Source: a virus (taxonomy: Duplodnaviria > Caudoviricetes). Taken from it: a stretch of 64,000 nucleotides of DNA. Under the pieces are notes generated by a model. It was given only the letters and a program-made list of their open reading frames with translations, did not search any database and was not told where the DNA came from. The stretch lies in IMG/VR virus record IMGVR_UViG_3300028364_000013; one strand, given 5' to 3'. Every line of letters starts with the position of its first letter. Position 1 is the stretch's first letter. The translations under genes were made by a program, and so were the position numbers. Shown here piece by piece: positions 14,109-58,018 of the stretch.

Positions 14109-14129
14109 TAAACTTAGAAACTCTCCCTA

Positions 14130-14348
14130 ATGGCAAAGATAGTATTATTAGAAGATGCAAAAAAGATGATTGGCGGACTTGTTAAGGCAGTTGGTACGTG
14201 TGGCATTGGCGATGGCGTTACTGTGCATGGAATACTATTAGAACTCTCCCCAATACCTATTGTATTGGTCTTAAAAGGTAACGGGCATAGCCAGCCTTAC
14301 TCAGTAGATAAAAACACCTTAGAACGCATTGAAACTCTCCCTAATTAG
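14130..14348 (+). CDS. hypothetical protein
   Basis: ORF. Confidence 0.65.
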   Translation: MAKIVLLEDAKKMIGGLVKAVGTCGIGDGVTVHGILLELSPIPIVLVLKGNGHSQPYSVDKNTLERIETLPN

Positions 14349-14405
14349 ATTGTAACTTTTTGAATTGCTATCGTTATATCTATGTAACCAATAAAGATAA
14401 ACAAA

Positions 14406-14648
14406 ATGGCAATAGGATTCAACACACCGTCAAAAAGACAAGCAGAAGAGTTAGAAGGACAAAACTCTCCCCAACCTCAACAAATGGGCGAAATGCCTAC
14501 GGGTCACTTACAAGCTCAGACAATACAAAAAATGCAAGCCTTGGGCGATATGATTTGCTCACCAAATTTTGCAACTCTCCCCGTGGCACAAAAAGAAATG
14601 ATGTTAATTGATTTTGCATATTTCACAAACCTTGCAAACGTTTTGTAA
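14406..14648 (+). CDS. hypothetical protein
   Basis: after pA; stop is the TAA of the next pA. Confidence 0.75.
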   Translation: MAIGFNTPSKRQAEELEGQNSPQPQQMGEMPTGHLQAQTIQKMQALGDMICSPNFATLPVAQKEMMLIDFAYFTNLANVL

Positions 14649-14698
14649 CTTTTTAAATTCATTTCGTTATACACTTGTAACCAATAAAGACAAACAAA

Positions 14699-14962
14699 AT
14701 GGCAAAGCATTATAAGTACGAAAAATTAATGGAGCATAACCCGACAAGCTACGGAGCAATGACAAACTCAAAGGGTCAAGAGATAGAGTTCTTTGAGCAC
14801 CCAATGCAAGGAGATATGTCAGTTGTTATATGTGTATGCCACAAATTAGAGAAAGCGGCAGATAGCACGTTTTTTGAAACTGATGACATGGAAGCAGAGC
14901 ATGGAGAATATGAGCCAAGTTTTCAAAATGGAAAATTATATATTGGAGATTTTGAAGCTTAG
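14699..14962 (+). CDS. hypothetical protein
   Basis: after pA. Confidence 0.8.
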   Translation: MAKHYKYEKLMEHNPTSYGAMTNSKGQEIEFFEHPMQGDMSVVICVCHKLEKAADSTFFETDDMEAEHGEYEPSFQNGKLYIGDFEA

Positions 14963-15019
14963 ATAATTGTAACTTTTTGAAATCGTATCGTTATACACTT
15001 GTAACCAAAAACAAAAGAC

Positions 15020-15412
15020 ATGAAAATTATTTTAGATAAAGTAGAAGTTTTAGAGATGGTGCATAACGCACTTTGCAACGGAGGGTTAAGCGAACTCGCA
15101 ATGTGTTCGGTTCGATTAAACATAGTTCAAGAGGACTATGAGGAAGCGAAAAACACTTGGAACGCAGAGAATGACAATAGCCCGTGTCGTGAGGACATTT
15201 ACGCTCAAATTCTTAAAAGCGGAAAGCCTTTACAGTTTTTTGACTATGAGGGGGATGAAGCGTTAGAATTCACGCTTGAGGGTGCGATAGAAGCCCTTAG
15301 CAATGAAGATGCGTCTGAAATAGTGTTGACCTACAAAGAAGAGGGGGATGATGCGATAACGGCTACTGAATTGCTTCAGCACTGTTTATATGGAGAAGTA
15401 ATTTTTGGATAA
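15020..15412 (+). CDS. hypothetical protein
   Basis: after pA. Confidence 0.8.
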   Translation: MKIILDKVEVLEMVHNALCNGGLSELAMCSVRLNIVQEDYEEAKNTWNAENDNSPCREDIYAQILKSGKPLQFFDYEGDEALEFTLEGAIEALSNEDASEIVLTYKEEGDDAITATELLQHCLYGEVIFG

Positions 15413-15593
15413 GATGGTTGATAAAATTTATTACATAACAAACCCTTATAGTGATGAGGGTAGAACCACCAAAAACTTTGACATTCCAAAGTGTGGAAAA
15501 GAAAAGCGCAGAGAGAAGAGAAAAGCGCAGAGAAAGAAATTGTAACTTTTTGAAATCGTATCGTTATATGTATGTAACATAAAAACAACGACA

Positions 15594-16172
15594 ATGAAAG
15601 ACTTAACAAAAGAAATGCACTTCGAGGAAAACTGTAAGACAACCCTTGGAGAACTTGAAAGATTAGCAAACAGATTACTTGCAACGATTTGGACAATTGA
15701 TATTTACAGTTTCAAAGAAGCAAGTGTTATTAACTTAAAAGAATTGGGGTGGAAGTTTGAGTATAATTCAAGAAAAAGAGCAGCAGGTCTTTGTAATTAC
15801 AGAAACAAAACGATTTACCTTTCAAAGTATTTGGTAACTCAAAACTTAAGCAAAGGATTAGAATTTGAAAACACATTGCGTCACGAATTAGCGCACGCAC
15901 TTGATGGAGCAATGGGAGGAAGAAACCACCACAACAACGTGTGGAAAGCAATAGCAAGAAAAGTACTTTGCACCGCAGAAAGATGCTACAAGTCGGAGGA
16001 CATTAGCGACACTCAAAGTAAATACACATTAGTTTGTGAAAATGGATGCGGGAAAAAAAGTGCGAGTCACAAAAAGAAGAAAAGAATTAGTGCTTGTGGA
16101 AAATGTTGTAACGAACACAACAACGGAAGATACACCGAAAAGTATGCACTAACACAGATACAGAACTATTAA
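15594..16172 (+). CDS. SprT-like zinc metalloprotease domain protein
   Basis: RAAGLC, TLRHELAH (HExxH), HNNVWKAIA, C-terminal Cys cluster. Confidence 0.85.
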   Translation: MKDLTKEMHFEENCKTTLGELERLANRLLATIWTIDIYSFKEASVINLKELGWKFEYNSRKRAAGLCNYRNKTIYLSKYLVTQNLSKGLEFENTLRHELAHALDGAMGGRNHHNNVWKAIARKVLCTAERCYKSEDISDTQSKYTLVCENGCGKKSASHKKKKRISACGKCCNEHNNGRYTEKYALTQIQNY

Positions 16173-16289
16173 GAGATTATTGTTTGTGTGGTTACGACAA
16201 TAAGGGGAGGCTGAAAAGTCTCCCTTTTCTTTGTTTGCCCCGAACGAGCGAAGCGTTGTAACTTTTTAAATAACCATCGTTATATGAAT

Positions 16290-16364
16290 GTAGGTAGGAA
16301 ACTGATACGGGCATGACATTTCAAAAATGGCGGAAGAGTAGACTCCAACACGCCCTCTTTTTTT
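16290..16364 (+). ncRNA. candidate sRNA, GAGTAGACTCCA family (copy A)
   Basis: own pA, no ORF, GGGC...GCCC stem plus T-run. Confidence 0.55.
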
Positions 16365-16409
16365 AAAACTCTCCCTTGTAACTTTTTAAAACCTCATCGT
16401 TATACAGAT

Positions 16410-16622
16410 ATGAAACTAACGCAGACACCCAACGCAGAATTAAACGCTAAGGCAATGGATAATGCTTTGCCTGATGGAAATTACTTAACCTGCCCTAAGT
16501 GGGGATACAGTGAGCGTGAGGTGGTCATAAAGGATGGAATACTCTCTCTTGTAAATGACAGTGAACATAAGTTCACACAACATTGGTTTTTCAAAGTCAA
16601 TGATGTATTAAAGTCTTTGTAA
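16410..16622 (+). CDS. hypothetical protein (leaderless)
   Basis: ATG 5 nt after pA -10; stop inside next pA. Confidence 0.8.
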   Translation: MKLTQTPNAELNAKAMDNALPDGNYLTCPKWGYSEREVVIKDGILSLVNDSEHKFTQHWFFKVNDVLKSL

Positions 16623-16668
16623 CTTTTTAAAACTGTGTCGTTATACATACATAACCAACAAGACAATT

Positions 16669-17013
16669 ATGAAATTTTTATTTGGATTTAGCAACGGATG
16701 TTACTGGCTGATTATTAGAACCGCAGAGGAACTGGAATTTGCCCTGAAGCATATGAACATGACCAACAGAGCAATGGATGTTTATTTGGAGGCGTTGACA
16801 AACAATAAAGTAATTTACCTTAATGAAGCAGGCGGATACCATACTGGCAGAATTCAGAATACAGATAAAACTCAAATGATTGAGAAAGACGCTTCAAGAT
16901 TTCCAACGAAGATGGATAGGGTTGAGGTTTTGAAAGAGGAATTACTGGTAGAAATAAATGAACTGGAAGAGGCTTTAAATATGCCATTAACTAAAAAAAT
17001 TATACTGGACTAA
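16669..17013 (+). CDS. hypothetical protein
   Basis: after pA. Confidence 0.8.
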   Translation: MKFLFGFSNGCYWLIIRTAEELEFALKHMNMTNRAMDVYLEALTNNKVIYLNEAGGYHTGRIQNTDKTQMIEKDASRFPTKMDRVEVLKEELLVEINELEEALNMPLTKKIILD

Positions 17014-17342
17014 TGGAAGATATTTTAAACATATTAAAAGAACTTTTGATAGGGTTAGAGTTCAATGATAGGACTAATTATATTGTTGTATGCAAATTCA
17101 GCATGAGCAATGTTAGAGCGTGGGAAAGAGATGGGTTACCAGCCTCAATGAAAGGTGAGAAGCCAGACCAAGTAATTTACCTGATGCCAGAGATTTCTCA
17201 CAGACTTAACCAGAAGGAGCAGGTGTATAATTCAGCAAAAGCTCTGGAAGAACTTATGGGCTTGGGATACAAAGTGGATGTGTGCGCTACAAAGAATGAT
17301 TTTATTATGGGAGATGACAATTTTATAACTCTCCCTTTGTAA
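17013..17342 (+). CDS. hypothetical protein
   Basis: coupled; stop inside next pA. Confidence 0.75.
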   Translation: MEDILNILKELLIGLEFNDRTNYIVVCKFSMSNVRAWERDGLPASMKGEKPDQVIYLMPEISHRLNQKEQVYNSAKALEELMGLGYKVDVCATKNDFIMGDDNFITLPL

Positions 17343-21749: not shown

Positions 21750-21789
21750 ATTCTCCCTATATTTATAGAAGTAATTAAATACACTCAAA

Positions 21790-21975
21790 ATGACAATTAA
21801 TCAAGCGCTCGACCAACTGACACAAGGACAAAATTTAAACCAAGAACAACAAGATTTAAGACTCTCCCTAATAAAGGTTAAAGTTGAATTTGGTGGTAAG
21901 ACTGTTATTGAAAATTGTGAGCAAGTCAAAAACATTATTAAGTTCGGTAACAAAAACGGAACTCTCCCTTTGTAA
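21790..21975 (+). CDS. hypothetical protein
   Basis: ORF after ATATTTAT motif. Confidence 0.7.
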   Translation: MTINQALDQLTQGQNLNQEQQDLRLSLIKVKVEFGGKTVIENCEQVKNIIKFGNKNGTLPL

Positions 21976-43255: not shown

Positions 43256-43262
43256 GAAAGCA

Positions 43263-44357: not shown

Positions 44358-44447
44358 GTAAAGTCTCCCTTTGTGCGTTTACGCCAAGTAGCGAAGCGGA
44401 TTGTAACTTTTTAAATAATAATCGTTATAAAATAAAAACACGATACC

Positions 44448-44810: not shown

Positions 44811-44868
44811 TTTTGTAACTTTTTAAATCCGTGTCGTTATATACTTGTAACATAAAAAATATAACAAC

Positions 44869-45429: not shown

Positions 45430-45512
45430 AACTAAAGCCCTCATTGACGTGGGGGCTTTTTGTAACTTTTTAAATTACCATCGTTATACACTTGAACTAA
45501 TAAAAAAACATT

Positions 45513-45725
45513 ATGAAAAAATTAATTTTTACAGTAGAAATAGAATTTGAAGATAAGGTGTGTTCAGATGGAGATATTCGTGAAGTCATGCACAATGTTG
45601 CAGATGGTTTGTCATTTGCAGCTGATAGAGAAGGGCTTGCACCTGAAGATAGTGAAACATTTACAAGAAAAATTAAAGTTTCTTCAAGTGTTATTGATGA
45701 TTCTGTTGAGAAAGTTATAGTTTAA
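45513..45725 (+). CDS. hypothetical protein
   Basis: after pA. Confidence 0.8.
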   Translation: MKKLIFTVEIEFEDKVCSDGDIREVMHNVADGLSFAADREGLAPEDSETFTRKIKVSSSVIDDSVEKVIV

Positions 45726-45782
45726 TTGTAACTTTTTAAATTGCCATCGTTATACAAGTGAACCAATAAACAAATACATATT

Positions 45783-46592
45783 ATGAAAATAATTCAAAAA
45801 AGTGATTTTTACAAAGTAGCATTAGCAGCAATAATTGTTGAGAAGGGATTCAACGTCAGAACAGACCTTGGAGACATTGATGCGCTCGCTCAGTCAATTG
45901 CAAAACTTGGACAGCAGACTCCAATTATTGCAACGAAAGTTCGTGGAGAGGACAAATTCCTCTTGACAGCAGGACACCGTAGATTGGCAGCAATTGCGAT
46001 TGCCAACAAAAAGTATGGTGCAAACATTACTCACGTAAATGTGATGAGCGCAAAAGGAGATGAGAAAGGTCGTGTCTTAACAATGTTGCTTGATGGAGAG
46101 GCTTCAAAGAAACTTTCAGCCTCTGAGATGGCTACTGGGTTTGCAAGACTTAAAGCAATGGGAATGAAGCCGTTGGAGATTGGTGCAAACGTAGGTCTTT
46201 CACAAGCGCAGGTGTACAACATTATTAATGTCACCAAAGCACCTCAGACCATTCAAGACATGGTTGAGAAAGGATTGATTTCTGTGGCTCTTGTGAATGA
46301 GATTCAGAGAACAACCAAAGACCCAGAAGAGCAAGTGAAGTTGGCAGAAGAGGCTGTGGCAAATGCGAATGTTGATGCAGGGGATGAGGATGGAGAGCCA
46401 AAGAAAAAGAAGGCTACCTCAGCAAATGCTAACACAAAGAAATTGTCAGCGGATGTTGCCAAGTTGGAAGCAGCAATTGAACTTGCAATTGAGGATAACC
46501 CTGCAAGTGGTAAAGCAGCAGTACTTAAAGCAATTGTTAACAAATTGAAGTCTAAGGCTTCGGCAGAAGATATTGCCAAGCTATTGAAATAA
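45783..46592 (+). CDS. ParB/Spo0J-like protein with HTH
   Basis: FNVR...LAQSIAKLGQQTPI...LTAGHRRLAA; central HTH (GMKPLEIGANVGLSQAQV). Confidence 0.85.
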   Translation: MKIIQKSDFYKVALAAIIVEKGFNVRTDLGDIDALAQSIAKLGQQTPIIATKVRGEDKFLLTAGHRRLAAIAIANKKYGANITHVNVMSAKGDEKGRVLTMLLDGEASKKLSASEMATGFARLKAMGMKPLEIGANVGLSQAQVYNIINVTKAPQTIQDMVEKGLISVALVNEIQRTTKDPEEQVKLAEEAVANANVDAGDEDGEPKKKKATSANANTKKLSADVAKLEAAIELAIEDNPASGKAAVLKAIVNKLKSKASAEDIAKLLK

Positions 46593-46629
46593 GATTGATA
46601 GGGAGGAATTCACACCTCTCCCTTTTTTC

Positions 46630-46699
46630 GCTCCTATCAGTTGGTAGAAAGCTGGGCTTCTAAAACCCGCAGTCCACGGTTCGAACCCGTGTGGGAGCA
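46630..46699 (+). tRNA. degenerate tRNA with CTA (amber) anticodon
   Basis: GCTCCTA/TGGGAGC acceptor, TGGGC-TTCTAAA-ACCCG, CACGG-TTCGAAC-CCGTG; D arm shortened. Confidence 0.55.
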
Positions 46700-46760
46700 C
46701 AAGTTGTAACTTTTTAAATCACCATCGTTATATAATTAACTAATAAAAAACCAAAATAAA

Positions 46761-46982
46761 ATGTTTAGAATTAAAGAAACAGATACAATTAAAGCAACTG
46801 TATGTTGCTCAAAAAGTAGAAAAATTTTAGCTTCAGTATATGATAGCGGATTTACAAGAATTAGCCAAGTTGAGTCAGCGTTAATGAGAAAGATACCTTT
46901 CTACAGCGGTAAATTGCTATATGTTTCGATTGTAAATATAGACAAAGAACTATGTAAGACTTTTGATGTTAAGGTTAACTGA
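46761..46982 (+). CDS. hypothetical protein, paralog of 43263-43493
   Basis: after pA; sequence similarity visible by eye. Confidence 0.8.
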   Translation: MFRIKETDTIKATVCCSKSRKILASVYDSGFTRISQVESALMRKIPFYSGKLLYVSIVNIDKELCKTFDVKVN

Positions 46983-46995
46983 TAGAATTGTAGGG

Positions 46996-47151
46996 ATGTC
47001 TCACCCAGTTGTGGGTCACGGAAGAGTTAAGAAGGATAAGATTCTAATTCGAAGTCTCCCTAAGTGGTACCAGAAATTTGGATTCGTTAAGACTCCTGAA
47101 TACACTGAGAAAAAAAAAAAAACGTACAATGTTGTACACTCCAAAAACTAA
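46996..47151 (+). CDS. small basic protein
   Basis: ORF containing an A13 run of uncertain length. Confidence 0.55.
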   Translation: MSHPVVGHGRVKKDKILIRSLPKWYQKFGFVKTPEYTEKKKKTYNVVHSKN

Positions 47152-47156
47152 ATAAC

Positions 47157-47525
47157 ATGAGCAGCATAGATAATAAATTCGAACAGTACCTGAATACCTT
47201 GGACCAAGTAGTGGCAAATATGTTAAGAGCAGCTGTTGAAGTAATTCCACAGGACCAGAGAAGAAAGTTCATTATTGATAACTGTCCAGTGAAAGCCCCT
47301 GTAGCAAATGACGCTAACTCAGACATGGCAGAGCACTGCTTGCCTGAAGAACCTAAGTCAAGAATATGGACTGTTGAAGTTTGTCGAACAACTCACGCCT
47401 TCAGAACAATGAAAGTTGTAGCAACAACTGAACAAGAAGCTTGTGAGAATGCAATTGACGCTGCTGGTGATGTAGAGTTCGGAAGTGGTGAGGCAGATTA
47501 TTCAACTCCAGACGGAGCATACTAA
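47157..47525 (+). CDS. hypothetical protein
   Basis: ORF. Confidence 0.75.
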   Translation: MSSIDNKFEQYLNTLDQVVANMLRAAVEVIPQDQRRKFIIDNCPVKAPVANDANSDMAEHCLPEEPKSRIWTVEVCRTTHAFRTMKVVATTEQEACENAIDAAGDVEFGSGEADYSTPDGAY

Positions 47526-47623
47526 AATTATAAATTTAGAAAACGTTCTTTGAAGTATTGTTTTATAAAAATAGAAAACAGAGTTATTTTGGTTTTTCAT
47601 TTTTATTTTATATATTTATTAAT

Positions 47624-48721
47624 ATGAAAGATATATTAATAAAATTTAAAAAGGTTCATGGTGAATTGTATGATTATTCATACGTAGATTATAAAGACAG
47701 ATTAACTAAAGTAGCTATAGGGTGTAAAGTTCATGGTGAATTCCTTCAAACTACAGCAGCCCACATTAGTGGCCAAGGTTGTCCAGAGTGTGGTAAAATT
47801 AAAAGAAGGATAGGGAAGAGAATTACTTTTGATGACTTCCTGATAAGAGCTAAAGATAAACATGGAAACAAATTTTCTTATAATAAAGAATCTTATGTTG
47901 ATATAGAAAAAGCTTTTGTTATTGTATGCCCTAATCATGGTGAGTTTACACAGTCTCCCAAAACTCATATAAAGAGTCACGGTTGTCCAAGATGTGGAAA
48001 CAACTCTGCATCACACAAACTCTCCCTTACTCGTCAAGAGTTTGTAGATAAAACTATCAGCGTTCATGGTGACAAATTCATTTATGATAAAGTCAAATAT
48101 ATCAACAATAGAACTCCTATTATTATAACTTGTAAGTTTCATGGAGATTTTAATCAAAAACCTAATTATCATTTATCTGGAAATGGTTGTCCTAAATGTG
48201 GAGGCACCTCTAAACTTTCTCTTGAAGGCTTTATAGATAGGAGTAATTTGATTCACGATTTTAAATATGATTACTCTAAATCAGAATTAATCAATAGCAA
48301 AAAAAAAGTTAAAATAATTTGCTTAAAGCATGGAGAATTTATGCAATCTCCCTCTCACCATATGATGGGCTCAGGATGCCCAACATGTAATGAGTCTAAA
48401 GGAGAAAAGTTGGTTGCAAAAATTCTTAAAGAAAAAAGCGTTAACTTTGTAAGACAAAAGAGATTTAAATATTGCAAAAATAAAGCAGTTCTCCCTTTTG
48501 ATTTTTATTTACCAGACTTAAATGTTTTGATTGAATTTGATGGTGCGCAGCATTTTTATCCTTGGAGATTAAAAGATACAGAAGTTGCAAAATTAAAACT
48601 TAAGAAGACACAAGAAAATGACCTTATCAAGACTGAATTTTGTAAAAAAAATGAAATTAAATTATTAAGAATTCGTTTTGATGAGAATGTTAAAAATAAA
48701 TTAGATAAACTATTAAAATGA
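47624..48721 (+). CDS. homing-endonuclease-like protein: tandem C-x2-HG zinc-finger repeats (DUF723-like) plus C-terminal PD-(D/E)xK/DUF559-like nuclease
   Basis: four C..HGEF.Q....H..G.GCP.C repeats; PFDFYLPDLNVLIEFDGAQH. Confidence 0.8.
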   Translation: MKDILIKFKKVHGELYDYSYVDYKDRLTKVAIGCKVHGEFLQTTAAHISGQGCPECGKIKRRIGKRITFDDFLIRAKDKHGNKFSYNKESYVDIEKAFVIVCPNHGEFTQSPKTHIKSHGCPRCGNNSASHKLSLTRQEFVDKTISVHGDKFIYDKVKYINNRTPIIITCKFHGDFNQKPNYHLSGNGCPKCGGTSKLSLEGFIDRSNLIHDFKYDYSKSELINSKKKVKIICLKHGEFMQSPSHHMMGSGCPTCNESKGEKLVAKILKEKSVNFVRQKRFKYCKNKAVLPFDFYLPDLNVLIEFDGAQHFYPWRLKDTEVAKLKLKKTQENDLIKTEFCKKNEIKLLRIRFDENVKNKLDKLLK

Positions 48722-49695
48722 AGCCAGGCCAAAACATAATTAAACAAATAGAAGACGGGAATTTCAATTTAAGTTCGCATCCAGTTTTTAGTCATAATCC
48801 AAAAAGATTAATGGATATTGGTTTTAATAAATCTCTTGAGTTAATTAAAAGAAGAGTTGGAGACCACAATCTCTCCCCAGTATATTTATTTAATTTATAT
48901 AAAACGTATCAATTTAAAATAGATATTATTGAGAGTAGCATTAAATCAGAGCTTGAACAAATAGCGGAAGATACAATTAGAGAAATGTATGATGTACCAG
49001 AAGATATAAATATTAAACCAAAGATTGTTAATCAAGATGATATTGAATATGATTTTGACTCTGAAAATGAAAAAATAGAAGTCTCCCCAGAAAGACTAAG
49101 ATTAATAAAAGAAGAAGCAAATAAAAGAATAATACTAAATTCTATTGTTCATGGTTCATCTGTTATGATTTGGTCAAGCGCATATTATATTGTAAAAGAA
49201 AAACTTGATGAATTAAATAATAAATTAATTGAACTATATGATATTTATTCTGCAGTTGTTAGTTATTTACTTTGGCTTCAGGAACCAAGTCAAGATTTGT
49301 CTGGAGTAGAAAAACAAGGAGTTTGTGAAATTGATTTTGAAGATGGATTAAGTTGTGAAGGAATAAATTTTCCAGTACTTTTATTGGAGACAAATAAAGT
49401 GGTGATTGATTATCTTATTTGTAAAGGTATACCAACCGATTTTAGTGAAGAAGAGTTAAAATTATATTATGCTCTTTCAGATGATTATAATCAAGAAATT
49501 TGGCATAATACATTGTCTCCAGTTATATATTCTGATTTTTTAGAAACAATAGAAATAGAATCAAATAAATTACCTGATGTAATATCAAAATTATCTCAAC
49601 TAAATTATGAAGAATTAAAAACTGTGTTCATATCTATACAACAAGATTCAAAAGAATCAGGAAAAATAGAACTTTTAAAATTTAAAATCGTATAA
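48718..49695 (+). CDS. hypothetical protein
   Basis: 325 aa ORF; stop is the TAA of a class B promoter. Confidence 0.85.
   Translation: MKPGQNIIKQIEDGNFNLSSHPVFSHNPKRLMDIGFNKSLELIKRRVGDHNLSPVYLFNLYKTYQFKIDIIESSIKSELEQIAEDTIREMYDVPEDINIKPKIVNQDDIEYDFDSENEKIEVSPERLRLIKEEANKRIILNSIVHGSSVMIWSSAYYIVKEKLDELNNKLIELYDIYSAVVSYLLWLQEPSQDLSGVEKQGVCEIDFEDGLSCEGINFPVLLLETNKVVIDYLICKGIPTDFSEEELKLYYALSDDYNQEIWHNTLSPVIYSDFLETIEIESNKLPDVISKLSQLNYEELKTVFISIQQDSKESGKIELLKFKIV
49667..49695 (+). promoter_or_regulatory. class B promoter upstream of the RadA-like/sigma region
   Basis: TAGAAC-N16-CGTATAA. Confidence 0.65.
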
Positions 49696-49701
49696 TATAA
49701 G

Positions 49702-49848
49702 ATGAGGAATATACAGATGATTGAACCTTTGGTAGAACCAAAGCCAGTTACGAAACCATCTCCAACGGAAAAGCCCAAGGAGAAACCAAGGAGAGGAGAC
49801 CCATGGACAGTGCCCGCACCGAAAGTGAACCCCACTCCAAAGGCCTGA
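49702..49848 (+). CDS. small proline-rich protein
   Basis: EPKPVTKPSPTEKPKENPRRGDPWTVPAPK. Confidence 0.6.
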   Translation: MRNIQMIEPLVEPKPVTKPSPTEKPKEKPRRGDPWTVPAPKVNPTPKA

Positions 49849-49899
49849 ATAATACAGACTGTAACTTTTTAAATATTAATCGTTATAAACATAATAGTC

Positions 49900-50109
49900 A
49901 TGAAGAAGAGAGATTTTAGCATAAAGAAAAAGATTATAAACAAAGGAGAGTATGATATGCTTAGAGGGATGATGACTGATGAAGCATTTTTCGATACATT
50001 CATAGTGTGTGACAAGTTGGTCACAAGAATGCTCGCTGCTGAGGCAGTAACATATGTAGCATTTACAGATGTTTCTCCAGTATACAATGATACAGCAAAA
50101 TTAAACTAA
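49900..50109 (+). CDS. hypothetical protein
   Basis: after pA. Confidence 0.7.
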   Translation: MKKRDFSIKKKIINKGEYDMLRGMMTDEAFFDTFIVCDKLVTRMLAAEAVTYVAFTDVSPVYNDTAKLN

Positions 50110-50116
50110 GATAAAG

Positions 50117-51025
50117 ATGAAAACGAAAAGAACATATGATGAAGTTGAGATTATTAATACTCCGTCTATTAAGACAGGGATTAAAACTCTTGACCTGTTC
50201 CTTTCTAACAATGGAGGGTTCGAACTTGGAAACCTGATTCTTATGACAGGAACTTCAGGTGCAGGTAAGACAACTCTTTGCAAACTGATTCAAAGAGAAA
50301 TTAAAAAACCAACATTATTTCACGCCTTAGAAAGTTTAGCGTCTTCAGTTAAGAGACAAACTCTTAGAATTAAAACACATTCCAACTGTTTTATTACTGA
50401 CGGGAAAGATTACCAAGACTTTGATGAGTTCATGGATTTCATTTATAGAGATAAGCCAAGATTTGTTATGGTTGATTCACTTCAACACGCTGTGAAACAA
50501 CTTAGGAAAAAAGGCATGGGAAAAGATGAGGCTTACCACCACGTACTGGACTCTTTATACAGATGGAAAGATGAGACGCAAGGAATTGTAATTCTTATTT
50601 GTCAGTTGAATAAAGACAACACGTTTTCAGGACCGTCAGGAATGTTGTTCGATGCGGATGTTCAGGTACACTTAGAGTACAACTCTAAAACAGGAGTTAG
50701 AACAATGGATACGAAGAAAAATAGAATGGGTCAACTGGACTCGATTTATTATGAGTTCTCTTCAGGAGTTGAGGTGATGAAGTTCTACACTCAAGAAGAA
50801 TGGGATGTAATTAAAATGGGTGTCACTTTGCCAGAGATGTTAATGAACATCATCTTCCAGTATTCAAACGCCTACAGGAACCACGATTCGTATTCTGTAT
50901 TTAAGAAAGAATTCAACAAGAAGATTAAGGTGATTTATAATTCTATTGATGATGACCTTGAGATTTGTTTATCAGTTACAAAACTGATGAGTGAATTAAC
51001 TAAAAAGTATTTTGTAACTTTTTAA
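50117..51025 (+). CDS. RadA/Sms-like RecA-family ATPase
   Basis: Walker A GTSGAGKTT, Walker B VMVDSLQ, SGP....DADVQVHL, KNR. Confidence 0.8.
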   Translation: MKTKRTYDEVEIINTPSIKTGIKTLDLFLSNNGGFELGNLILMTGTSGAGKTTLCKLIQREIKKPTLFHALESLASSVKRQTLRIKTHSNCFITDGKDYQDFDEFMDFIYRDKPRFVMVDSLQHAVKQLRKKGMGKDEAYHHVLDSLYRWKDETQGIVILICQLNKDNTFSGPSGMLFDADVQVHLEYNSKTGVRTMDTKKNRMGQLDSIYYEFSSGVEVMKFYTQEEWDVIKMGVTLPEMLMNIIFQYSNAYRNHDSYSVFKKEFNKKIKVIYNSIDDDLEICLSVTKLMSELTKKYFVTF

Positions 51026-51069
51026 ATAACCATCGTTATACATACACGAACCAATAAATAGAGAGAGAT

Positions 51070-51711
51070 ATGACAAACGTAAAGAAAGATTCAGAACAAG
51101 CTACTAAAGATAAAGCAAACGTAGCAGTGCTTCAAGATATTAATGCCACAGCAAGAGCAAAAGATGATGCTTTTAGTAAGCTGTATGGTAGACACAACCA
51201 ACAAGTCCGCATTCACTTCCTCAAGAGATTGAGAGATACAGATGTTGCTGAGGATTTGCTTATGATAACTTTTGTAAAGGCGCATGAGAACATTAACACT
51301 TATGACCCAAAAGTGGGTGCATTTTCTACTTGGTTGTACAAGATTGCAAACAACTCTTTGATTGACTTGTTGAGAAAAGCAAAGTTCGAAGTTCTTTCTT
51401 TGGATTCGCTTCAAAGTAAGACGTCAGACGACAATGATGGAATGGAATTTCAATTAGATTCAGATACTCCAAACCCATTGCAAATTCTTGTTCATGATGA
51501 GGTAACAAAACAAGTTTCTGATGCAGTTAATTCTATTAAGTCCAAAAAAGTTCGTGAATTAATGATTTGCAGATACATTGATGAAATGAGTTTTGAAGAA
51601 ACGGCAAAGGCTCTTGGTCTTGAATTGAATTCAACACTTAGAACAGCTGTTGCAAGAGGTAAAGAGATTCTTAAAAAGAAATTAGCTAACCTTGAAAATA
51701 ATGTCTCATAA
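51070..51711 (+). CDS. RNA polymerase ECF sigma factor (sigma70 group 4, SigW/RpoE-like)
   Basis: region 2 VAEDLL...FSTWLYKIANNSLIDLLRK; region 4 RYIDEMSFEETAKALG...RGKEILKKKL; lacks regions 1.1 and 3. Confidence 0.92.
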   Translation: MTNVKKDSEQATKDKANVAVLQDINATARAKDDAFSKLYGRHNQQVRIHFLKRLRDTDVAEDLLMITFVKAHENINTYDPKVGAFSTWLYKIANNSLIDLLRKAKFEVLSLDSLQSKTSDDNDGMEFQLDSDTPNPLQILVHDEVTKQVSDAVNSIKSKKVRELMICRYIDEMSFEETAKALGLELNSTLRTAVARGKEILKKKLANLENNVS

Positions 51712-51942
51712 CATAAAACCAACGGTCTTATGACCGACCCCATACTACTGGGATGTGATAGTGTAGTGACTATTGTCTGGAAGTAGTGTTATGATAAAAA
51801 GCTATTAGTTCGGTGAATGAAGCAAAGCGTTAGCGCCAATAGTTTAAGTGCCCCGTGGTTATGATACACCACGGGGTTTTTTGTGCGTTGCCCCGAACGA
51901 GCGCAGCGTTGTAACTTTTTAAATATCCATCGTTATACAAAT

Positions 51943-52022
51943 AAGAAAAGGGCCTGGCGGAGAAAGTCGGAAGAGTAGACTCCAACGTGCGTTGGATTTT
52001 GTGAACAAGCTCCAACCTGCCC
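51943..52022 (+). ncRNA. candidate sRNA, GAGTAGACTCCA family (copy D)
   Basis: own pA; second CTCCAACCTGCCC at about 52010. Confidence 0.55.
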
Positions 52023-52105
52023 AATACTCTCGTGAAATATAAATTTATAATTTTAGAAAAATAAAGCCCGTTATTAACATATCGCCTAAAAAAGATTGTT
52101 TTAGG

Positions 52106-52134
52106 TAGAACATTTTAAAATCTCTTACGTATAA
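52106..52134 (+). promoter_or_regulatory. class B ECF-like promoter
   Basis: TAGAAC-N16-CGTATAA. Confidence 0.7.
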
Positions 52135-52280
52135 GATAATGAAAGAACAAATAGATTTATATTTTTTACACTTTGTAACATTTTGTAACATTTTGTAACT
52201 TTTTAAATCTATGTCGTTATACAGTCATAACCAATGACCGCAGGGCAAGACCTGCTTTGCAGTCGCAAAAAACAATTATT

Positions 52281-53156
52281 ATGAAAAATGAAAATGCATT
52301 TAACTGGGACATTAAGCAAACAGGAATTCTTGACATTAATGGAAACCCTATAAAAGGGTACAAAGAAATTACTCGTGATGACAATGGGTCAAGCATTGCT
52401 GTTATGAAAGAGTCTTATACGCCAATGACAACTCAACAATTCTCTGATACAGCAAACGAAGTTGCAGGTGCAATTGGAGGTTCTGGACTTATTTTTAAGG
52501 ATTGGAATGACAATAGTGTTGAAGGGCAAATGGGAGCTAACAAGCCCGTGATTACTTGTCAGATGGAAATGAGCGAGCCTCTTGAGATTGCAGGCTCAAA
52601 GATTGAAGGTAAGTTAACAATTGGTGTTGGATTTGACGGAGGGCGTAGCTTCTTTATTGGTCACACAAATACTTACCTTAGATGCACAAATGAATTCTCT
52701 TCAATTGTGAAGGACTTCAAAAGCAGACTTACTGTAAATAACATGGTAAGAGTTGAAGACATTATTAAAAACATTCAAACGTATAGAGATTACGAAAGAA
52801 ATTTATACGAAAACTTTGAGAGATTTCATAACACAAAAATTGATGAAAAGATTGTTCAAGAATGTCTTGCACGTCTTGTTGATTTGACTGTTGAAGAGAG
52901 AGCAATGACTGTTAAGGAGAGAAACACAGAGTTGTCTTCTCAAAAGTTGAACAAGATTGATGACATTACTGCAAGTATTAGAACAGAAATGGCAGAGCTT
53001 GGTAACAACGCTTGGGGATTATTCAATGGGGTCACACATTATTCTACACATATTATGAACTCAAGAGGTTCAAATGAGTTGAGTACAATGTTCGGAGCAA
53101 AGAACAAAGCAAACCAAATTGTTTATGGCTTAGGTCTTGAATTACTTGATGCATAA
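52281..53156 (+). CDS. DUF932-family phage/plasmid protein
   Basis: FDG....GHTNTYLRCTN and NAWGLFNGVTHY motifs. Confidence 0.75.
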   Translation: MKNENAFNWDIKQTGILDINGNPIKGYKEITRDDNGSSIAVMKESYTPMTTQQFSDTANEVAGAIGGSGLIFKDWNDNSVEGQMGANKPVITCQMEMSEPLEIAGSKIEGKLTIGVGFDGGRSFFIGHTNTYLRCTNEFSSIVKDFKSRLTVNNMVRVEDIIKNIQTYRDYERNLYENFERFHNTKIDEKIVQECLARLVDLTVEERAMTVKERNTELSSQKLNKIDDITASIRTEMAELGNNAWGLFNGVTHYSTHIMNSRGSNELSTMFGAKNKANQIVYGLGLELLDA

Positions 53157-53232
53157 GATGCTAAACAACAAACTTAAGGAGAGCAGAAATGTTCTCCTTT
53201 TTTTGTGACCAATTTTGTCTAAGGAAAGTTTA

Positions 53233-53321
53233 GGGCAGGGGTGGATTGCCTGTCAAGGCTGTGCTCTTGACTTTAAGGCACAGGGCACTTATTCTTACCT
53301 TGCCTGTTTCACTCAAGGGAC
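53233..53321 (-). ncRNA. candidate sRNA, AATCCAC-CCTGCC subfamily (copy H)
   Basis: own minus-strand pA; possible pseudoknot CTGTGC/GCACAG plus GTCAAG/CTTGAC. Confidence 0.5.
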
Positions 53322-53411
53322 ATAGTTATAACGATAATGGTTTAAAAAGTTACAACCGTTGGAATTCTGGTTTTTAATTCATATTTATCAGAAAATCTAA
53401 AACCAACAACC

Positions 53412-53657
53412 ATGAACCTAAAAGAAGCAAAACAATTGTTTGAAGAAATAGTAGAACTTTGTTACCAGACAGAAAATCAACAACTGATTGAAACCATTGA
53501 ACAAATTTATCCAGAAGTAGAAGAAGCAACAGCAGTTTTTAAAGTAATATCTTCAGCTGAAGAATTACAAGTTATCATAAACGAAATAGAATTCCTTCCT
53601 GAAGAAGAAGAGGATGTCCAGGAGCTGCAGGAGATAATCGAAAAGTTGTCAGAATAA
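53412..53657 (+). CDS. hypothetical very acidic protein
   Basis: ORF after ATATTTAT motif. Confidence 0.8.
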   Translation: MNLKEAKQLFEEIVELCYQTENQQLIETIEQIYPEVEEATAVFKVISSAEELQVIINEIEFLPEEEEDVQELQEIIEKLSE

Positions 53658-53714
53658 CATAAATAATTTTTATTTGTAAAAGTCTTTGCGTATCTTTGTG
53701 CAAAGACTTTTTTT

Positions 53715-54284
53715 ATGCACAGAGGAATTATCATATACTTATCAATCCTGATAGGCTTAGCTCTTACAGCTGGGGGTAGCTATTTTATTATTGACAACCT
53801 AATAAAACCACAGGGGTTTATGTTCGAAGGAATCATGGCAGCAGGCCTGGGAATAACATTGCTTATGTCAGTAATCGTTGCCGCAACAATCGGAAAGGCA
53901 ATTATGCTGTTCGGTGAAATCCTGGAGCAGACAACAAAGCTAAATCAGGAAATTGTAAAACAAAGCCAGCCGCAATCCATATCCAGTATATTTCAGGGAA
54001 TGATGCCGCCAGGCTCAAACATGACTGTTACAAACCTGAACACAGGAGAAACATCATCCAATAAACCTGAACTGGGAAAAATGAGTGAGATGATTTTTAA
54101 CGCAATGGCTGCTGGCTTGAGCGGCAAGACAAATGTAGAACTTAAAGATATGAGTGTCAAGGAGTTAGAGAAACTCTTGGCAAAAGCTATTAAGGATGAT
54201 GACTATGAATCTGCAACAGAGATTAGTGCAATCCTGAAGGAGAAGAAGAATCCTGGTTCAGGTGACTCTGAAAATAATTCATAA
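53715..54284 (+). CDS. membrane protein with C-terminal UVR motif
   Basis: 2 TM; ELEKLLAKAIKDDDYESATEI. Confidence 0.7.
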   Translation: MHRGIIIYLSILIGLALTAGGSYFIIDNLIKPQGFMFEGIMAAGLGITLLMSVIVAATIGKAIMLFGEILEQTTKLNQEIVKQSQPQSISSIFQGMMPPGSNMTVTNLNTGETSSNKPELGKMSEMIFNAMAAGLSGKTNVELKDMSVKELEKLLAKAIKDDDYESATEISAILKEKKNPGSGDSENNS

Positions 54285-54288
54285 AAAA

Positions 54289-54317
54289 TAGAACATTCTA
54301 AATTTATAAACGTATAA
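54289..54317 (+). promoter_or_regulatory. class B ECF-like promoter
   Basis: TAGAAC-N16-CGTATAA. Confidence 0.7.
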
Positions 54318-54321
54318 GATA

Positions 54322-54455
54322 ATGTAGGCTGAAAGATACCTACATTCTAACGAGATTTCCTTTTGGAAGTTTTAGTTGTCTATCCTGAAGGTGGAATATC
54401 CTGACGGAATTGTCTCTTATCAGAAAAGCTCGGTTTTGTCACCGAGCTTTTCGCT
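54322..54455 (+). ncRNA. candidate pB-driven sRNA
   Basis: no ORF; ATGTAGG/CCTACAT hairpin; AAAAGCTCGG/CCGAGCTTTT terminator. Confidence 0.45.
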
Positions 54456-54554
54456 TTTATAGTAAGTTGCTTCGTTACGAACAACGAAGTTGCAAGCAAA
54501 GCGGAAAATGAATTTATTCATTGTAACTTTTTAAATTCCTGTCGTTATACAATC

Positions 54555-54767
54555 ATGGGAAACCCAAATTCAAAAAAACACAAAGCAAACCACGCAGGCT
54601 ACAGAGATAAGCCAGGGCGTAGAGCAATTGACGCACTTTGCGGAATGTACGCTGCAATTGGTAATGTAGAAATTCTGGTTGGAACGCCAGGAGAAGGAAA
54701 GCCGAGACTCGGAACTCCAGTAAACAAAACACAGCCAAAACCAGGTACACAGCTTAGTTTATTCTAA
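54555..54767 (+). CDS. small basic protein (leaderless)
   Basis: ATG 5 nt after pA -10. Confidence 0.7.
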   Translation: MGNPNSKKHKANHAGYRDKPGRRAIDALCGMYAAIGNVEILVGTPGEGKPRLGTPVNKTQPKPGTQLSLF

Positions 54768-54820
54768 ATTGTAACTTTTTAAATTGACATCGTTATACAC
54801 TTAAATTAAAAACAATTATT

Positions 54821-55324
54821 ATGAAAAAGTATTTATTAGTATTAGCATTAGCAGGATTGTTCACTTCAATTTCAAGTTGCAAGAAAGAAACAATTGAACC
54901 GAAACCTGAACCAGACACAACAGTTGTCACAACCAATGAACCAGTAGCAATGAACCTTCAGGTTTATTCTTTTGATGACGGCAATGGATTTGCAGGATAT
55001 GACTTCAAAGTTGTCATAAAAAGCCCAAATGAGTCCGTTGACTCTTTGTCTACAACATTCTCCAATTATTCTGATGGAGTTACTTCACCAAACTTTGCAA
55101 CACTTCAATGTAATGTAGATACCAGTCTCGTTTATACGATAGACATATATGATAATGCAAATAATTATTTGTTAACTGTTCCTTTAGAGTTTCATTGGGA
55201 AGATTATATTCTGGCAGTCAATGATGATGCAAGTAGTACAATTACTGGAGAAGTATTTAACCATGATAACATAGAAACACAAAACGCCTCACAGGCTCAT
55301 GTTGTTTTAGCTATTGGTAAGTAA
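54821..55324 (+). CDS. lipoprotein
   Basis: signal peptide with lipobox ISSC-KKE, Bacteroidota style. Confidence 0.8.
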   Translation: MKKYLLVLALAGLFTSISSCKKETIEPKPEPDTTVVTTNEPVAMNLQVYSFDDGNGFAGYDFKVVIKSPNESVDSLSTTFSNYSDGVTSPNFATLQCNVDTSLVYTIDIYDNANNYLLTVPLEFHWEDYILAVNDDASSTITGEVFNHDNIETQNASQAHVVLAIGK

Positions 55325-55422
55325 ACTTTGTAACTTTTTAAATTCCTGTCGTTATACAGATATAACATAACCTGCGTGAGATTGTTCATGCAGGTTTTTT
55401 AACCACATTAAAACTTAGAGAT

Positions 55423-55752
55423 ATGAAATTCGTTTACATTATTGAAATTGGACAGCTTAGCAAATTAGAGAACAAATTTAACTTCTATGACATGGAAGTG
55501 TTCCCAAGTCAAAAGGCAGCTGACCATGTTGTTAAAAATATGATTGAGTGTAATACCTCTGGAGATTTTGAAGAACTTGTTAAGCAAGGTGATGTTAGAA
55601 TTGAGAAGTCTGAAGAAGGCGGATTCAAGAGAGGTGAAGTTAGTCATACTGTTTATACTTACAATTGCATGGGGTCTGGATTCAATAACGTTCCTACCAA
55701 AATGACAGTGAGATACGTAGTTAGAAAAATGTTAGTAAACAGAAACTTTTAA
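55423..55752 (+). CDS. hypothetical protein
   Basis: after pA. Confidence 0.8.
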   Translation: MKFVYIIEIGQLSKLENKFNFYDMEVFPSQKAADHVVKNMIECNTSGDFEELVKQGDVRIEKSEEGGFKRGEVSHTVYTYNCMGSGFNNVPTKMTVRYVVRKMLVNRNF

Positions 55753-55756
55753 TATT

Positions 55757-55942
55757 ATGGCAGACGCAAGAACAAAACAAACAAGAGTGCTTACTATTAC
55801 AATAGAAGTCTCTTCAGATGTAAAACTTCCTTCAGACCATGAGATGGTCTTAATTGCTGCAGCAGCTTCAGGAGCTATGGCAGACAAAGCAAAAGAGAAA
55901 GGGTTGACGCTCGATAACTTAATAACTCATAGCAATGACTAA
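55757..55942 (+). CDS. hypothetical protein
   Basis: ORF. Confidence 0.7.
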   Translation: MADARTKQTRVLTITIEVSSDVKLPSDHEMVLIAAAASGAMADKAKEKGLTLDNLITHSND

Positions 55943-56270
55943 TTTATTCTGGATACAAAAATATAGACAACAAATTTTCGCTCTGGAGCTTCTGGTGGCG
56001 ATTATTTTTGGACCTGCTCTGGCAAACATCCTGAGCGGCTCCGTCCTGTTAAGCCTGGTAATGATTGCAGCAGTTTTTCTATTTTTAGAAATTACTCTGG
56101 CTTTTACCAGGGTCACCTTTGCGAAGGTAGCCCATGAGAATACCAAGAAGATTTATGATAAGACACAGGCAGCACACAAAAAGATTAAACAGGACTACCA
56201 GGATATGACTGGTGAGCAACTGGACAAGCGCAGGGCAATACAGCATTCAAAAAAGAAACGTAAGCCCTAA
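55935..56270 (+). CDS. hypothetical membrane protein
   Basis: 2 TM plus basic tail. Confidence 0.75.
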   Translation: MTNLFWIQKYRQQIFALELLVAIIFGPALANILSGSVLLSLVMIAAVFLFLEITLAFTRVTFAKVAHENTKKIYDKTQAAHKKIKQDYQDMTGEQLDKRRAIQHSKKKRKP

Positions 56271-56307
56271 GAAGGCAAAAACAATATAAACTAAAAAGAG
56301 ATTATCA

Positions 56308-56339
56308 TTTGGTAGTCTCTTTTTTAATCACTACATTTG
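56308..56339 (+). promoter_or_regulatory. Bacteroidota housekeeping-sigma promoter
   Basis: TTTG-N20-TACATTTG. Confidence 0.8.
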
Positions 56340-56361
56340 CTTACATAAAAATTAATTAGAG

Positions 56362-56598
56362 ATGAGACTTACAGTACACGTATCAGGCGCAAAGAAAGAC
56401 ACGCACGAAAAGAAGACCAAAGAAGGAATTGTTAATGTTAAAAAAACATTTAACACTCTATCGTTCTCAAGTGTGAACCCAGAAGATGTTGGAAGCATCC
56501 TAAACAAGATTAAAGCTGAAGGGCTTGGAGAGCCTACCAAGCATTACCTCTCTAACGAGAAGATTCCTGGTCACGCCAGAGGGAAAAGAAAAGCCTAA
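56362..56598 (+). CDS. small basic protein
   Basis: ORF after host-type promoter. Confidence 0.75.
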   Translation: MRLTVHVSGAKKDTHEKKTKEGIVNVKKTFNTLSFSSVNPEDVGSILNKIKAEGLGEPTKHYLSNEKIPGHARGKRKA

Positions 56599-56712
56599 AC
56601 CCTGAACACAAATATATGAAAACCTTCAGCTATGCTGGGGGTTTTTTTTTGTCCAGTCGGGACTGGTCAAATTCAGATTTGTAACTTTTTAAAAACACAT
56701 CGTTATACAAAT

Positions 56713-56780
56713 GTCGATGCGAACAGCGAGACGGGTCTGGTCACCGAGGTGAACCGAAAGAGTAGACTCCAGCCTGCCTT
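56713..56780 (+). ncRNA. candidate sRNA, GAGTAGACTCCA family (copy E)
   Basis: own pA; hairpin GGTCAC-CGAG-GTG-A-ACC replaces the copy B hairpin. Confidence 0.6.
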
Positions 56781-56865
56781 ATATTTTCTTGCCAACCATT
56801 TTGTAAGCGAATCGGAAAAAGATTTTATTCTTTGTAACTTTTTAAATTCTTATCGTTATACAAGT

Positions 56866-56937
56866 GTAGACAATGAGAGACACATCTACTACCCCAGAAC
56901 TGAAAAACTTATGGCAGGGTTAATCCACTCCTGCCCC
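56866..56937 (+). ncRNA. candidate sRNA, AATCCAC-CCTGCC subfamily (copy G)
   Basis: own pA; GGCAGG-GTTAATCCACT-CCTGCC stem-loop. Confidence 0.5.
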
Positions 56938-57039
56938 AAACTTTTTTGCCCAATTTATTATTTGAGCCTGCTCCATCGAGCACGCAGTGCTTATGCAGAA
57001 TCATTCTTAATAAGCATCATTTAAAAAGTTACAATTTTA

Positions 57040-57068
57040 TAGAACATTTGTTGATAACTTACGTATAA
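57040..57068 (+). promoter_or_regulatory. class B promoter at right island edge
   Basis: TAGAAC-N16-CGTATAA next to a degenerate minus-strand pA. Confidence 0.7.
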
Positions 57069-57446
57069 GATAATACTAAGTAACTAACGAAAAAACACAT
57101 TATGAAAAATTACTGACATATAGAAATCTCCAAAACTTTTTAAGCAAACACCGACCATGCTCTGAACTCGTTTCTTAGCTCTTCTACGCACGCCATGCTT
57201 AGTGGTCCAATATGCGCTTAAGAATCCTAAAGATTTCTTAGATTATTTCCCATAATTTCTATGACAGTATTTTGCACCTTCGGATGCAAGACTAAATAGG
57301 ACGACCCAGAGCTCGACTTGCTTCTTGCACTCAAGCTTTGGTATAGTCCTATTTTTTAGAAATTTAGGTGATGCACATGTACGAACAATTTCAATATCGC
57401 CTAAATTTTGGAAATTTGGATGGTTGAGAAAATTCAGTACTATGGT

Positions 57447-57620
57447 GTGGGGAAATGTGGGATGTGCAGCACCGAATATTAAACTACCTCTTTTCGATGT
57501 TTTTAATACCTAACTATCTGATTATTAGAAAAAATAGTTATTAACATTACCAACCTTTCCCTAAATGCACCCCCTAAATTTCCATTTTTTAGGCTATTAT
57601 TTTATCCCACATTTCCCCAC
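57447..57620. repeat. 17-bp perfect inverted repeat in non-coding region
   Basis: GTGGGGAAATGTGGGAT (57447-57463) / ATCCCACATTTCCCCAC (57604-57620). Confidence 0.85.
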
Positions 57621-58018
57621 CCTCCACCACATAAAATTGCACCCTCTCCCGCTCCCTCCCAGCTCTCCCCAGAATCGACCTCAAATATTACCCACTTCTC
57701 CCTGATTTTATACCCCTAATATAAGCTGCTGGTTGGGGATAAAACTATGCCAATCCAGAGACAAAATCCCCTTATCTCCCCAGAGATATTACCCAGGTCA
57801 TCGTGACATATTTACACCCCTCCCCTTGCTCACTCTGACGTTTCACAACTCTCCCTATGCAAATTGTTATAAATTTAGAAAATGCCTATACAATACATCT
57901 ATTTAATGTTTCTATTTAATCGTGATGCTCTGGGTACAATCTGCTCCTGCAGAATCAAAATATCCCTATACAAAAAAAGGAGAACTGCTTTCACAACTCT
58001 CCCTATTAATAACGCAAA

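Follow-up and report, generated by a model that had tools for sequence, protein, structure and literature searches.

We analysed a window of 64,000 nucleotides of phage DNA (Duplodnaviria; Caudoviricetes), which is the reverse strand of bases 32,279-96,278 in a 142,155-base virus record (IMGVR_UViG_3300028364_000013). The genes are on the plus strand as far as about 57 kb and on the minus strand past 58 kb, with a convergence zone between them. The plus-strand part carries an island of 71 promoter-like elements between 13,435 and 56,833, which are all of the plus-strand ones in the 142-kb record; their form resembles extracytoplasmic function (ECF) sigma promoters with a SigW/SigX-type consensus. 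The subject of this report is a short word, TCTCCCY (Y, pyrimidine), which occurs 37 times on the plus strand of this region, from 14,122 to 58,004, and 0 times on the minus strand of the window. The features concerned are listed below by position in the window.

13,435-56,870, plus strand: ECF-type promoter-like island, 71 elements of the form TGTAAC, 10-22 nt, GTTATA
14,122-14,582, plus strand: array of five copies (14,122, 14,245, 14,336, 14,466 and 14,576) spaced by 91-130 nt, with two small open reading frames (ORFs), at the island start
16,219-17,336, plus strand: three copies; 16,219 is the 3' arm of a terminator, and 16,370 and 17,330 abut the -35 word of the next promoter
21,752-21,969, plus strand: array of three copies bracketing and within a 61-codon ORF
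32,615-36,685, plus strand: ten copies in about 4 kb; 32,615 and 34,759 are terminator 3' arms, the others lie in genes
38,793-38,799, plus strand: one in-gene copy
43,193-44,370, plus strand: three copies (43,193, 44,329 and 44,364) at the end of a 268-codon gene and just past it
45,783-46,592, plus strand: gene of a ParB-like protein with a ParB helix-turn-helix (HTH) domain, kept in all relatives
46,617-49,088, plus strand: nine copies, four of them in an HNH/DUF723 gene and two in a 325-codon gene
51,070-51,711, plus strand: gene of the phage ECF-type sigma factor (Pfam Sigma70_r2 at 1e-14, plus region 4), the marker used for finding relatives
57,340-57,900, no strand assigned: conserved non-coding element with inverted repeats, holding the terminal cluster, about 0.5-1.1 kb past the last promoter (56,833)
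57,645-58,004, plus strand: terminal cluster, six copies in the zone of convergence, which is non-coding and C-rich

The first-pass annotation had reported, by eye, about 40 plus-strand copies between 14.1 and 58.0 kb, and exact counting bears this out. The five copies at the island start are exact, and the plus-strand count is 0 both in 1-14 kb and past 58.1 kb, as had been claimed. The seven copies placed in 57,640-58,002 come down to six TCTCCC, of which five have a pyrimidine next. Irrespective of the following base, the island holds 39 copies of TCTCCC (the 37 and two more followed by A or G) and three of its reverse complement, GGGAGA, in keeping with the handful noted earlier; the plus strand of the window as a whole has five.

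This abundance is far above expectation. Markov models predict 1.3-2.1 copies of TCTCCC in 14.0-58.1 kb under orders 0-2 and 6.3 under order 3, where about one had been estimated from eyeballed composition. Dinucleotide shuffles, counting TCTCCCY on both strands together, gave 8.6 with a maximum of 17. Within genes, 22 copies were found vs 2.19 ± 1.33 after synonymous-codon shuffling of the 100 plus-strand ORFs (maximum 6 in 300 shuffles), a null that is conservative because the word's own rare codons stay in it. The in-gene copies use all three reading frames (7, 10 and 5), as the annotation had stated, and a further 17 copies lie in the 9.4 kb of non-coding island DNA. The enrichment therefore outlasts the Markov and codon-aware nulls that had been set beforehand as its refutation.

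The strand bias likewise holds across the 142-kb record, which has 40 plus-strand vs 2 minus-strand copies, with 37 of the 40 inside the island. Outside it, TCTCCC in the sense strand is found three times vs 2.7 expected. We looked for a switch of polarity over the whole record and found none at the convergence zone; the word simply stops. GGGAGA shows a different behaviour, being scarce in the sense strand both in the island (3 vs 7.9 expected by codon shuffling) and outside it (12 vs 26.7), so that phage-wide it falls below half of expectation (15 vs 34.6). This scarcity is found throughout the phage and so does not belong to the signal; its cause may be that Shine-Dalgarno-like words are avoided in a phage whose hosts rarely use sites of this type. 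The strand asymmetry of four other words, CGAAGA, AGCGGA, GGCAGA and GGGATG, was traced to plain purine-rich coding bias or to parts of the module upstream of the promoters.

The word has the core (C or G)TCTCCC(T or C). Copies in the window also have A-A at -3 and -2, which those of relatives do not. Among 114 pooled sites, aligned over ±45 nt, information outside -1 to +6 is at most 0.22 bits. As no further position within ±45 nt is informative, and no second element stands at a fixed spacing, a two-part promoter is ruled out on either strand. The word is also exact: one-mismatch neighbours are not enriched on the plus strand, and T precedes 39 of the 46 CTCCC. The same exactness led us to reject a Rho utilisation (rut) tract. 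A structured RNA element was likewise rejected, since the pairing state of the word is that of controls and a search of the window against Rfam returned two tRNAs and nothing else.

To compare related phages, we assembled ten non-redundant syntenic loci through homologues of the sigma factor (45-94% identity) and of a 181-residue island protein. Together they hold 124 plus-strand and 1 minus-strand TCTCCCY. These loci range from 28 to 41% GC and use three promoter words (TGTAAC, TGTCAC and TGTTAG), yet the density of the word is maintained across this range, and in several of them TCTCCC ranks first or second among enriched hexamers. In-gene copies number 91 vs 14.5 under the codon-aware null, above every shuffle in eight of the ten loci. 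Because the word outlives the drift of the promoter words, the sigma factor is unlikely to be its reader. The Cellulophaga phage phi4:1, which is without island promoters, shows no bias, the word there lying mainly antisense to genes, as purine-rich coding predicts.

The promoters themselves vary in both boxes among the relatives, with TGTAAC, TGTCAC and TGTTAG(A) at -35 and CGTTATA, CGCTATA, CGTATA and CTTCGTAAC at -10. These changes track the divergence of the phage ECF sigma and would make a natural series for sigma-promoter co-evolution. Two relatives carry inserts of mobile type in the island, a TnpB-like gene (OrfB_IS605, with a Cas12f-like domain) at 11,321-12,514 of L044 and a minus-strand DUF559 endonuclease gene at 15,297-16,145 of L049.

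Constraint at the nucleotide level was assessed with codon alignments of reciprocal best hits from seven genomes, conditioned on the reference sequence. Where the overlapped amino acids are identical, TCTCCC is itself identical in 88% of cases (88 of 100; rank 13 of 1,277 hexamers) vs 47.5% for the average hexamer, the pairs being non-independent. With the window as sole reference, the word survives in 12 of 16 such cases, the baseline being 43.5%. Site 48,872 lies where the protein has diverged; even so, the word is present there in four relatives, displaced by one base and so in a different frame. Individual copies are more labile: raw pairwise retention is 0.46 vs 0.20 for the average hexamer, and more than half of the copies are unshared in a given genome pair. 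Such turnover at constant density points to selection on presence and density more than on exact position. The word is maintained by selection across the clade.

Several individual copies can be followed through the clade. Copies 35,487 and 36,660 are kept in relatives, and copy 47,055, in a GNAT-like gene, is kept in five of them. A stretch of about 70 nt centred on one copy in a 363-codon gene is near-identical in L039 (about 8,592-8,660), L041, L043 (about 8,702-8,770) and L045 (about 5,399-5,467), even though about 40% of synonymous codons differ elsewhere between their versions of this gene; the stretch appears to be missing from the 325-codon version of the window.

Within the island, all copies point with transcription, and the bounds of the word (14,122-57,998) closely follow those of the promoters (13,435-56,833). 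The copies are clustered, with 10.7 and 8.6 kb left empty between them (P = 0.0004 for the larger stretch), and only 17 of 70 promoter intervals contain any. They keep away from the promoter upstream of them, at a median distance of 712 nt vs 353 nt for random positions (p = 0.001), with none in the first 113 nt past promoters. Conversely, eight copies lie within 45 nt upstream of the next promoter vs 2.0 expected, and several directly abut its -35 word. Three unrelated small ORFs end in TLP(L or N) and a stop codon (copies 14,336, 17,330 and 21,963), because the word sits just before the stop codon and directly ahead of the next promoter. The arrays at 14.1 and 21.7 kb were considered as possible paralogues and are not paralogous.

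We then examined the sequence following the word in a pool of 169 copies from 11 genomes. The 121 in-gene copies have no special tail. In contrast, 56% of the 48 intergenic copies have at least four T in the next 6 nt vs 12.6% of background. An upstream G-rich arm makes 38% of the intergenic copies intrinsic terminators, such as copy 46,617 behind the ParB-like gene; in the 30 without an arm, the T-tract is still present in 43%. In relatives, GGGAGA is rare on the plus strand, and where it does occur it mostly forms the 5' arm in a perfect GGGAGA-loop-TCTCCC-TTT hairpin. Terminator arms had been described as a minority of copies, and this is so: with an arm at about five of 39 copies in the window and 18 of 169 in the pool, they were rejected as a whole account of the word.

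The terminal cluster lies where plus- and minus-strand genes converge. Between the last promoters (56,680 and 56,833) and the cluster lies about 1 kb with neither credible ORFs nor a predicted plus-strand terminator, and the C content around the cluster reaches 29-47% per 100 nt (57.55-57.85 kb). The same order of last promoters, ORF-free kilobase, cluster and converging genes is found in L035, L036 and L037, in which the first 230 columns of the zone are highly conserved, word-holding modules included. Copy 57,998 is the complement of AGGGAGAG, the 5' arm of a minus-strand terminator that ends a tRNA-like gene, and copy 57,850 is an 18-nt duplicate of it. The zone also contains a perfect 17-bp inverted repeat (57,447-57,463 and 57,604-57,620) and further nested inverted repeats. 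The contigs of L035, L037, L041, L043 and L045 end in or just before the equivalent zone, an indication of a repeat, of a hypervariable site or of a physical end of the DNA.

The setting of the island was compared with known phages and cells. The closest named phages are the Cellulophaga phages phi4:1 and phi17:2, through one 717-residue protein at 46-54% identity. Among cells, the phage sigma has its nearest homologues in Bacteroidota and adjacent phyla, those of lake Crocinitomicaceae and Chitinophagaceae ranking with the best, and the phage DNA occurs in lake and salt-lake metagenomes (19 samples, all assembled DNA contigs). From this kinship, these homologues and this occurrence, we regard the phage as a large lake-dwelling one with a Bacteroidota-type host. 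Since a 364-kb contig encodes a sigma protein identical to that of the window, the record probably covers only part of a much larger phage. Other searches returned little: a megablast of 9 kb against a phage collection gave 0 matches, a search of genome contigs with the phage sigma gave cellular ECF sigmas only (30-38% identity), and a viral-contig collection yielded single matches to the promoter pattern and no clade member by sigma protein and profile scans.

Some neighbouring features stand apart from the word. Two or three tRNA genes (Glu, Glu-like and Met) lie on the minus strand at 37,160-37,569, in the middle of the plus-strand island and in a promoter gap from 36,074 to 37,644. The left flank of the island (11,900-12,900) is about 1 kb of ORF-poor DNA in which ATTCCGATGGTCATTCCG occurs three times, along with a 52-nt direct repeat and an inverted pair rich in G/C (12,147-12,162 and 12,847-12,862); near this flank, two divergent promoter-like elements lie on the minus strand at 13,051 and 13,363. 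Short contigs from four lake samples break or cross-join at promoter copies (window 44,001-57,000). The promoters are similar enough to behave as repeats in assembly, a possible reason for the fragmented state of this region in public assemblies of relatives. Compared with the window over 44,001-64,000, contigs from four lake samples show no variation at the word.

The word is thus shown to be enriched, exact, polar, conserved across the clade, constrained at the nucleotide level, clustered and linked to T-tracts. We tentatively favour, at somewhat less than even confidence, a sense-strand signal read with transcription, either on the nascent RNA or on the non-template strand. Bounds and direction shared with the promoters, the distance kept from them, the link to T-tracts and terminators and the cluster at the end are best explained in this way. 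The word would be written into a subset of the units driven by the phage ECF-type sigma, and UCUCCC would be recognised in the nascent RNA, or the word on the exposed non-template strand, during or after transcription. A putative conserved trans-acting factor would then set the fate of the transcript, through 3'-end formation, a stop to read-through or turnover. Intergenic copies with a T-tract may work at the ends of units, and some would have turned into full intrinsic terminators by acquiring an arm upstream. The cluster of six copies could halt plus-strand transcription before the converging genes, or titrate the reader, and the in-gene copies would be further targets whose exact position is unimportant.

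Several observations weigh against a reading coupled to transcription. About 70% of copies are in genes and have no T-tract, so termination alone cannot account for them, and some of the T-tracts that follow a copy are the T-run before the -35 word of the next promoter. The word is absent from 53 of 70 promoter intervals, among them every unit between the sigma gene and the convergence zone; it is therefore not general to sigma-driven transcripts. The predicted probability that it is unpaired in RNA is 0.46, vs 0.48 and 0.50 for controls. Family scans of the 89 island ORFs recognised only the sigma, ParB-HTH, Hc1-like, HTH_3, KaiC-like ATPase, HNH/DUF723, SprT-like and DUF932 proteins, and none of the KH, S1, cold-shock, RRM or RNase families. 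Finally, the minus-strand gene in the island of L049 contains two plus-strand copies vs 0.2 expected (P = 0.013), which fits a signal that follows the region and not the local transcript.

A more specific version, to which we give little credence, is that the word is one half of a split terminator or decay signal, with a protein or a GGGAGA-bearing RNA as the reader of nascent UCUCCC. Such a reader would replace the missing hairpin arm at sites with a T-tract and mark the in-gene sites, so that a single factor could shut down a particular group of early units at a fixed point in time. The non-coding RNA with six copies might then, much like CsrB/RsmZ, be a decoy or a fail-safe stop. The complementarity between the word and the hairpin arm AGGGAGAG of the minus-strand tRNA-like gene beside the cluster bears on this version.

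The strongest competitor to a transcription-coupled signal is a polar DNA signal for a machine that moves in one direction, such as a phage or host helicase-nuclease (Chi-like), a translocase (KOPS-like, after the FtsK-orienting polar sequences) or a replisome, with density and orientation as the properties that matter. We consider it possible, though on balance unlikely. Strict polarity, a short exact word and copies that turn over while density is kept in relatives all speak for it, and the mixed contexts (all frames, terminator arms, positions abutting promoters) are typical of words placed where they are tolerated. The two plus-strand copies in the minus-strand gene of L049 also fit, and the terminal cluster, in its conserved zone of inverted repeats, could mark an origin or an end. 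However, the word is limited to part of a 44-kb block and, even there, leaves its two long gaps of 10.7 and 8.6 kb, while the other 87 kb of coding DNA is at expectation. No polarity switch occurs across the convergence zone, and the next 38 kb holds one minus-strand copy. TCTCCCT occurs 151-510 times in five Bacteroidota genomes vs 94-878 times for four composition-matched words (an indirect test, with genomes of plausible host lineages). The T-tract bias of intergenic copies is left unexplained. The first-pass annotation had proposed a polar DNA signal marking the same region as the promoter island. The polarity and the coincidence with that region stand, and the word is real and selected, whereas the Chi-like, KOPS-like and ParB or nucleoid models named with it are not supported. 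A Chi-like role is weakened by the remainder of the phage at expectation and by the lack of excess in the five Bacteroidota genomes, and a KOPS-like role fails on polarity that does not switch at the convergence zone in a word confined to about 44 of 142 kb. Clade-wide persistence through changes of the promoter word, clustering by unit and the ties to T-tracts and terminators slightly favour the transcription-coupled signal over a pure DNA signal. We judge it unlikely that a mechanism beyond those listed here is at work.

The word could also be the site of a strand-specific nicking enzyme or primase, which on the pattern in the sequence we consider rather improbable. T5 and LUZ24-like phages have single-strand interruptions at short consensus sites, and the exactness of the word here is nuclease-like, with only one strand marked and a specificity kept clade-wide. 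By itself, however, nicking or priming leaves unexplained a 10-20-fold enrichment, the confinement of the word to some of the transcription units and its T-tract context, and the only recognised nuclease of the island (HNH/DUF723) is missing in several relatives that keep the word.

Still less probable, in our estimate, is a double-stranded DNA site for a phage ParB-like, Hc1-like or HTH protein that would organise or silence the early region. The ParB-like protein, encoded within the word-rich segment and with its ParB HTH present in every relative, is a possible candidate for a reader at the DNA level, and Hc1-like and HTH_3 proteins are encoded in the island as well. Copies are clustered, some in arrays with a spacing of about 100 nt, and several adjoin promoter -35 words. 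What double-stranded binding does not predict is the polarity of 37:0 (124:1 in relatives). A sense strand rich in purines would accommodate the opposite orientation, GGGAGA, far more easily (about 8-10 copies by chance), but that orientation is unused, and this counts against the ParB or nucleoid site suggested in the annotation. Sites of the parS type are palindromic, unlike this asymmetric, non-palindromic hexamer with its roughly 40 dispersed copies.

A functionless by-product of terminator arms, shared repeat modules, S-P or L-P protein motifs or composition is very improbable and largely refuted by the codon, mismatch, frame and synonymous-site tests: although about 11% of clade-pooled copies are terminator arms, a repeated QSP peptide is encoded by two of the copies in the HNH gene and 57,850 and 57,998 form an 18-nt duplicate, enrichment outlasts synonymous-codon shuffling in the window and in eight of ten relatives, no one-mismatch neighbour is enriched, three frames are used, synonymous positions within the word are conserved above baseline, density is kept from 28 to 41% GC and the arrays are not paralogous.

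Should the word be read during transcription, it would represent a new type of class-specific transcript control in a phage, operating in hosts that express their genes differently from model bacteria. Should the reader act on DNA, the word would be the mark of a directional process that is confined to the early region. In either case the signal is simple enough for direct testing, and the word can be used as a sequence marker of this phage clade.

In the literature on TCTCCC or UCUCCC in phages, we found only the cos overhangs of Microbacterium phages and unrelated work. Short, polar, over-represented words are known as a kind; a regional, clade-wide case linked to a sigma island appears, from the literature we found, to be without a described counterpart. 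The DNA uptake sequences (DUS) of Neisseria and uptake signal sequences (USS) of Haemophilus resemble it in being exact, present at about one per kb and in genes, frequently reused as terminator arms and subject to turnover at constant density. Unlike the word described here, which is strictly polar and regional, they occur genome-wide in both orientations. At the RNA level, the RegB sites of T4 (GGAG in early mRNAs) and the Nrd1-Nab3 termination words of yeast are short words that mark a class of transcript for a trans-acting protein. The island ORFs include no homologues of these proteins, and the word here is pyrimidine-only and mostly in genes, with a reading at the RNA level that we infer.

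Among phage systems, the EcoP15I sites of T7 (CAGCAG), which are tied to escape from Type III restriction, are also asymmetric hexamers that all lie on one strand of a co-directionally transcribed region. Their bias explains the loss of one orientation, and not a 10-20-fold excess of the other; here, moreover, minus-strand copies exist elsewhere in the phage, numbering 13 in the 142 kb. The nick motifs of T5 and LUZ24-like phages share with the word a short, one-strand, clade-conserved consensus. They differ in being few, with no reported enrichment in genes, while the present word is known from its sequence pattern.

The word also resembles those that are read by DNA machines. KOPS and the SpoIIIE recognition sequences (SRS), which guide FtsK and SpoIIIE, are likewise strictly polar and of octamer size, but KOPS span the replichores and flip at dif, whereas the word here stops at the convergence zone and does not flip. 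Chi (GCTGGTGG in E. coli, AGCGG in B. subtilis) is short, exact, orientation-dependent, read on one strand and over-represented, with density mattering over position, as here. Its excess extends over the whole host genome, whereas the present word belongs to part of one phage region and shows no excess in the five Bacteroidota genomes. It was through Chi, KOPS and similar short polar words that the reading of direction on DNA by molecular machines came to light.

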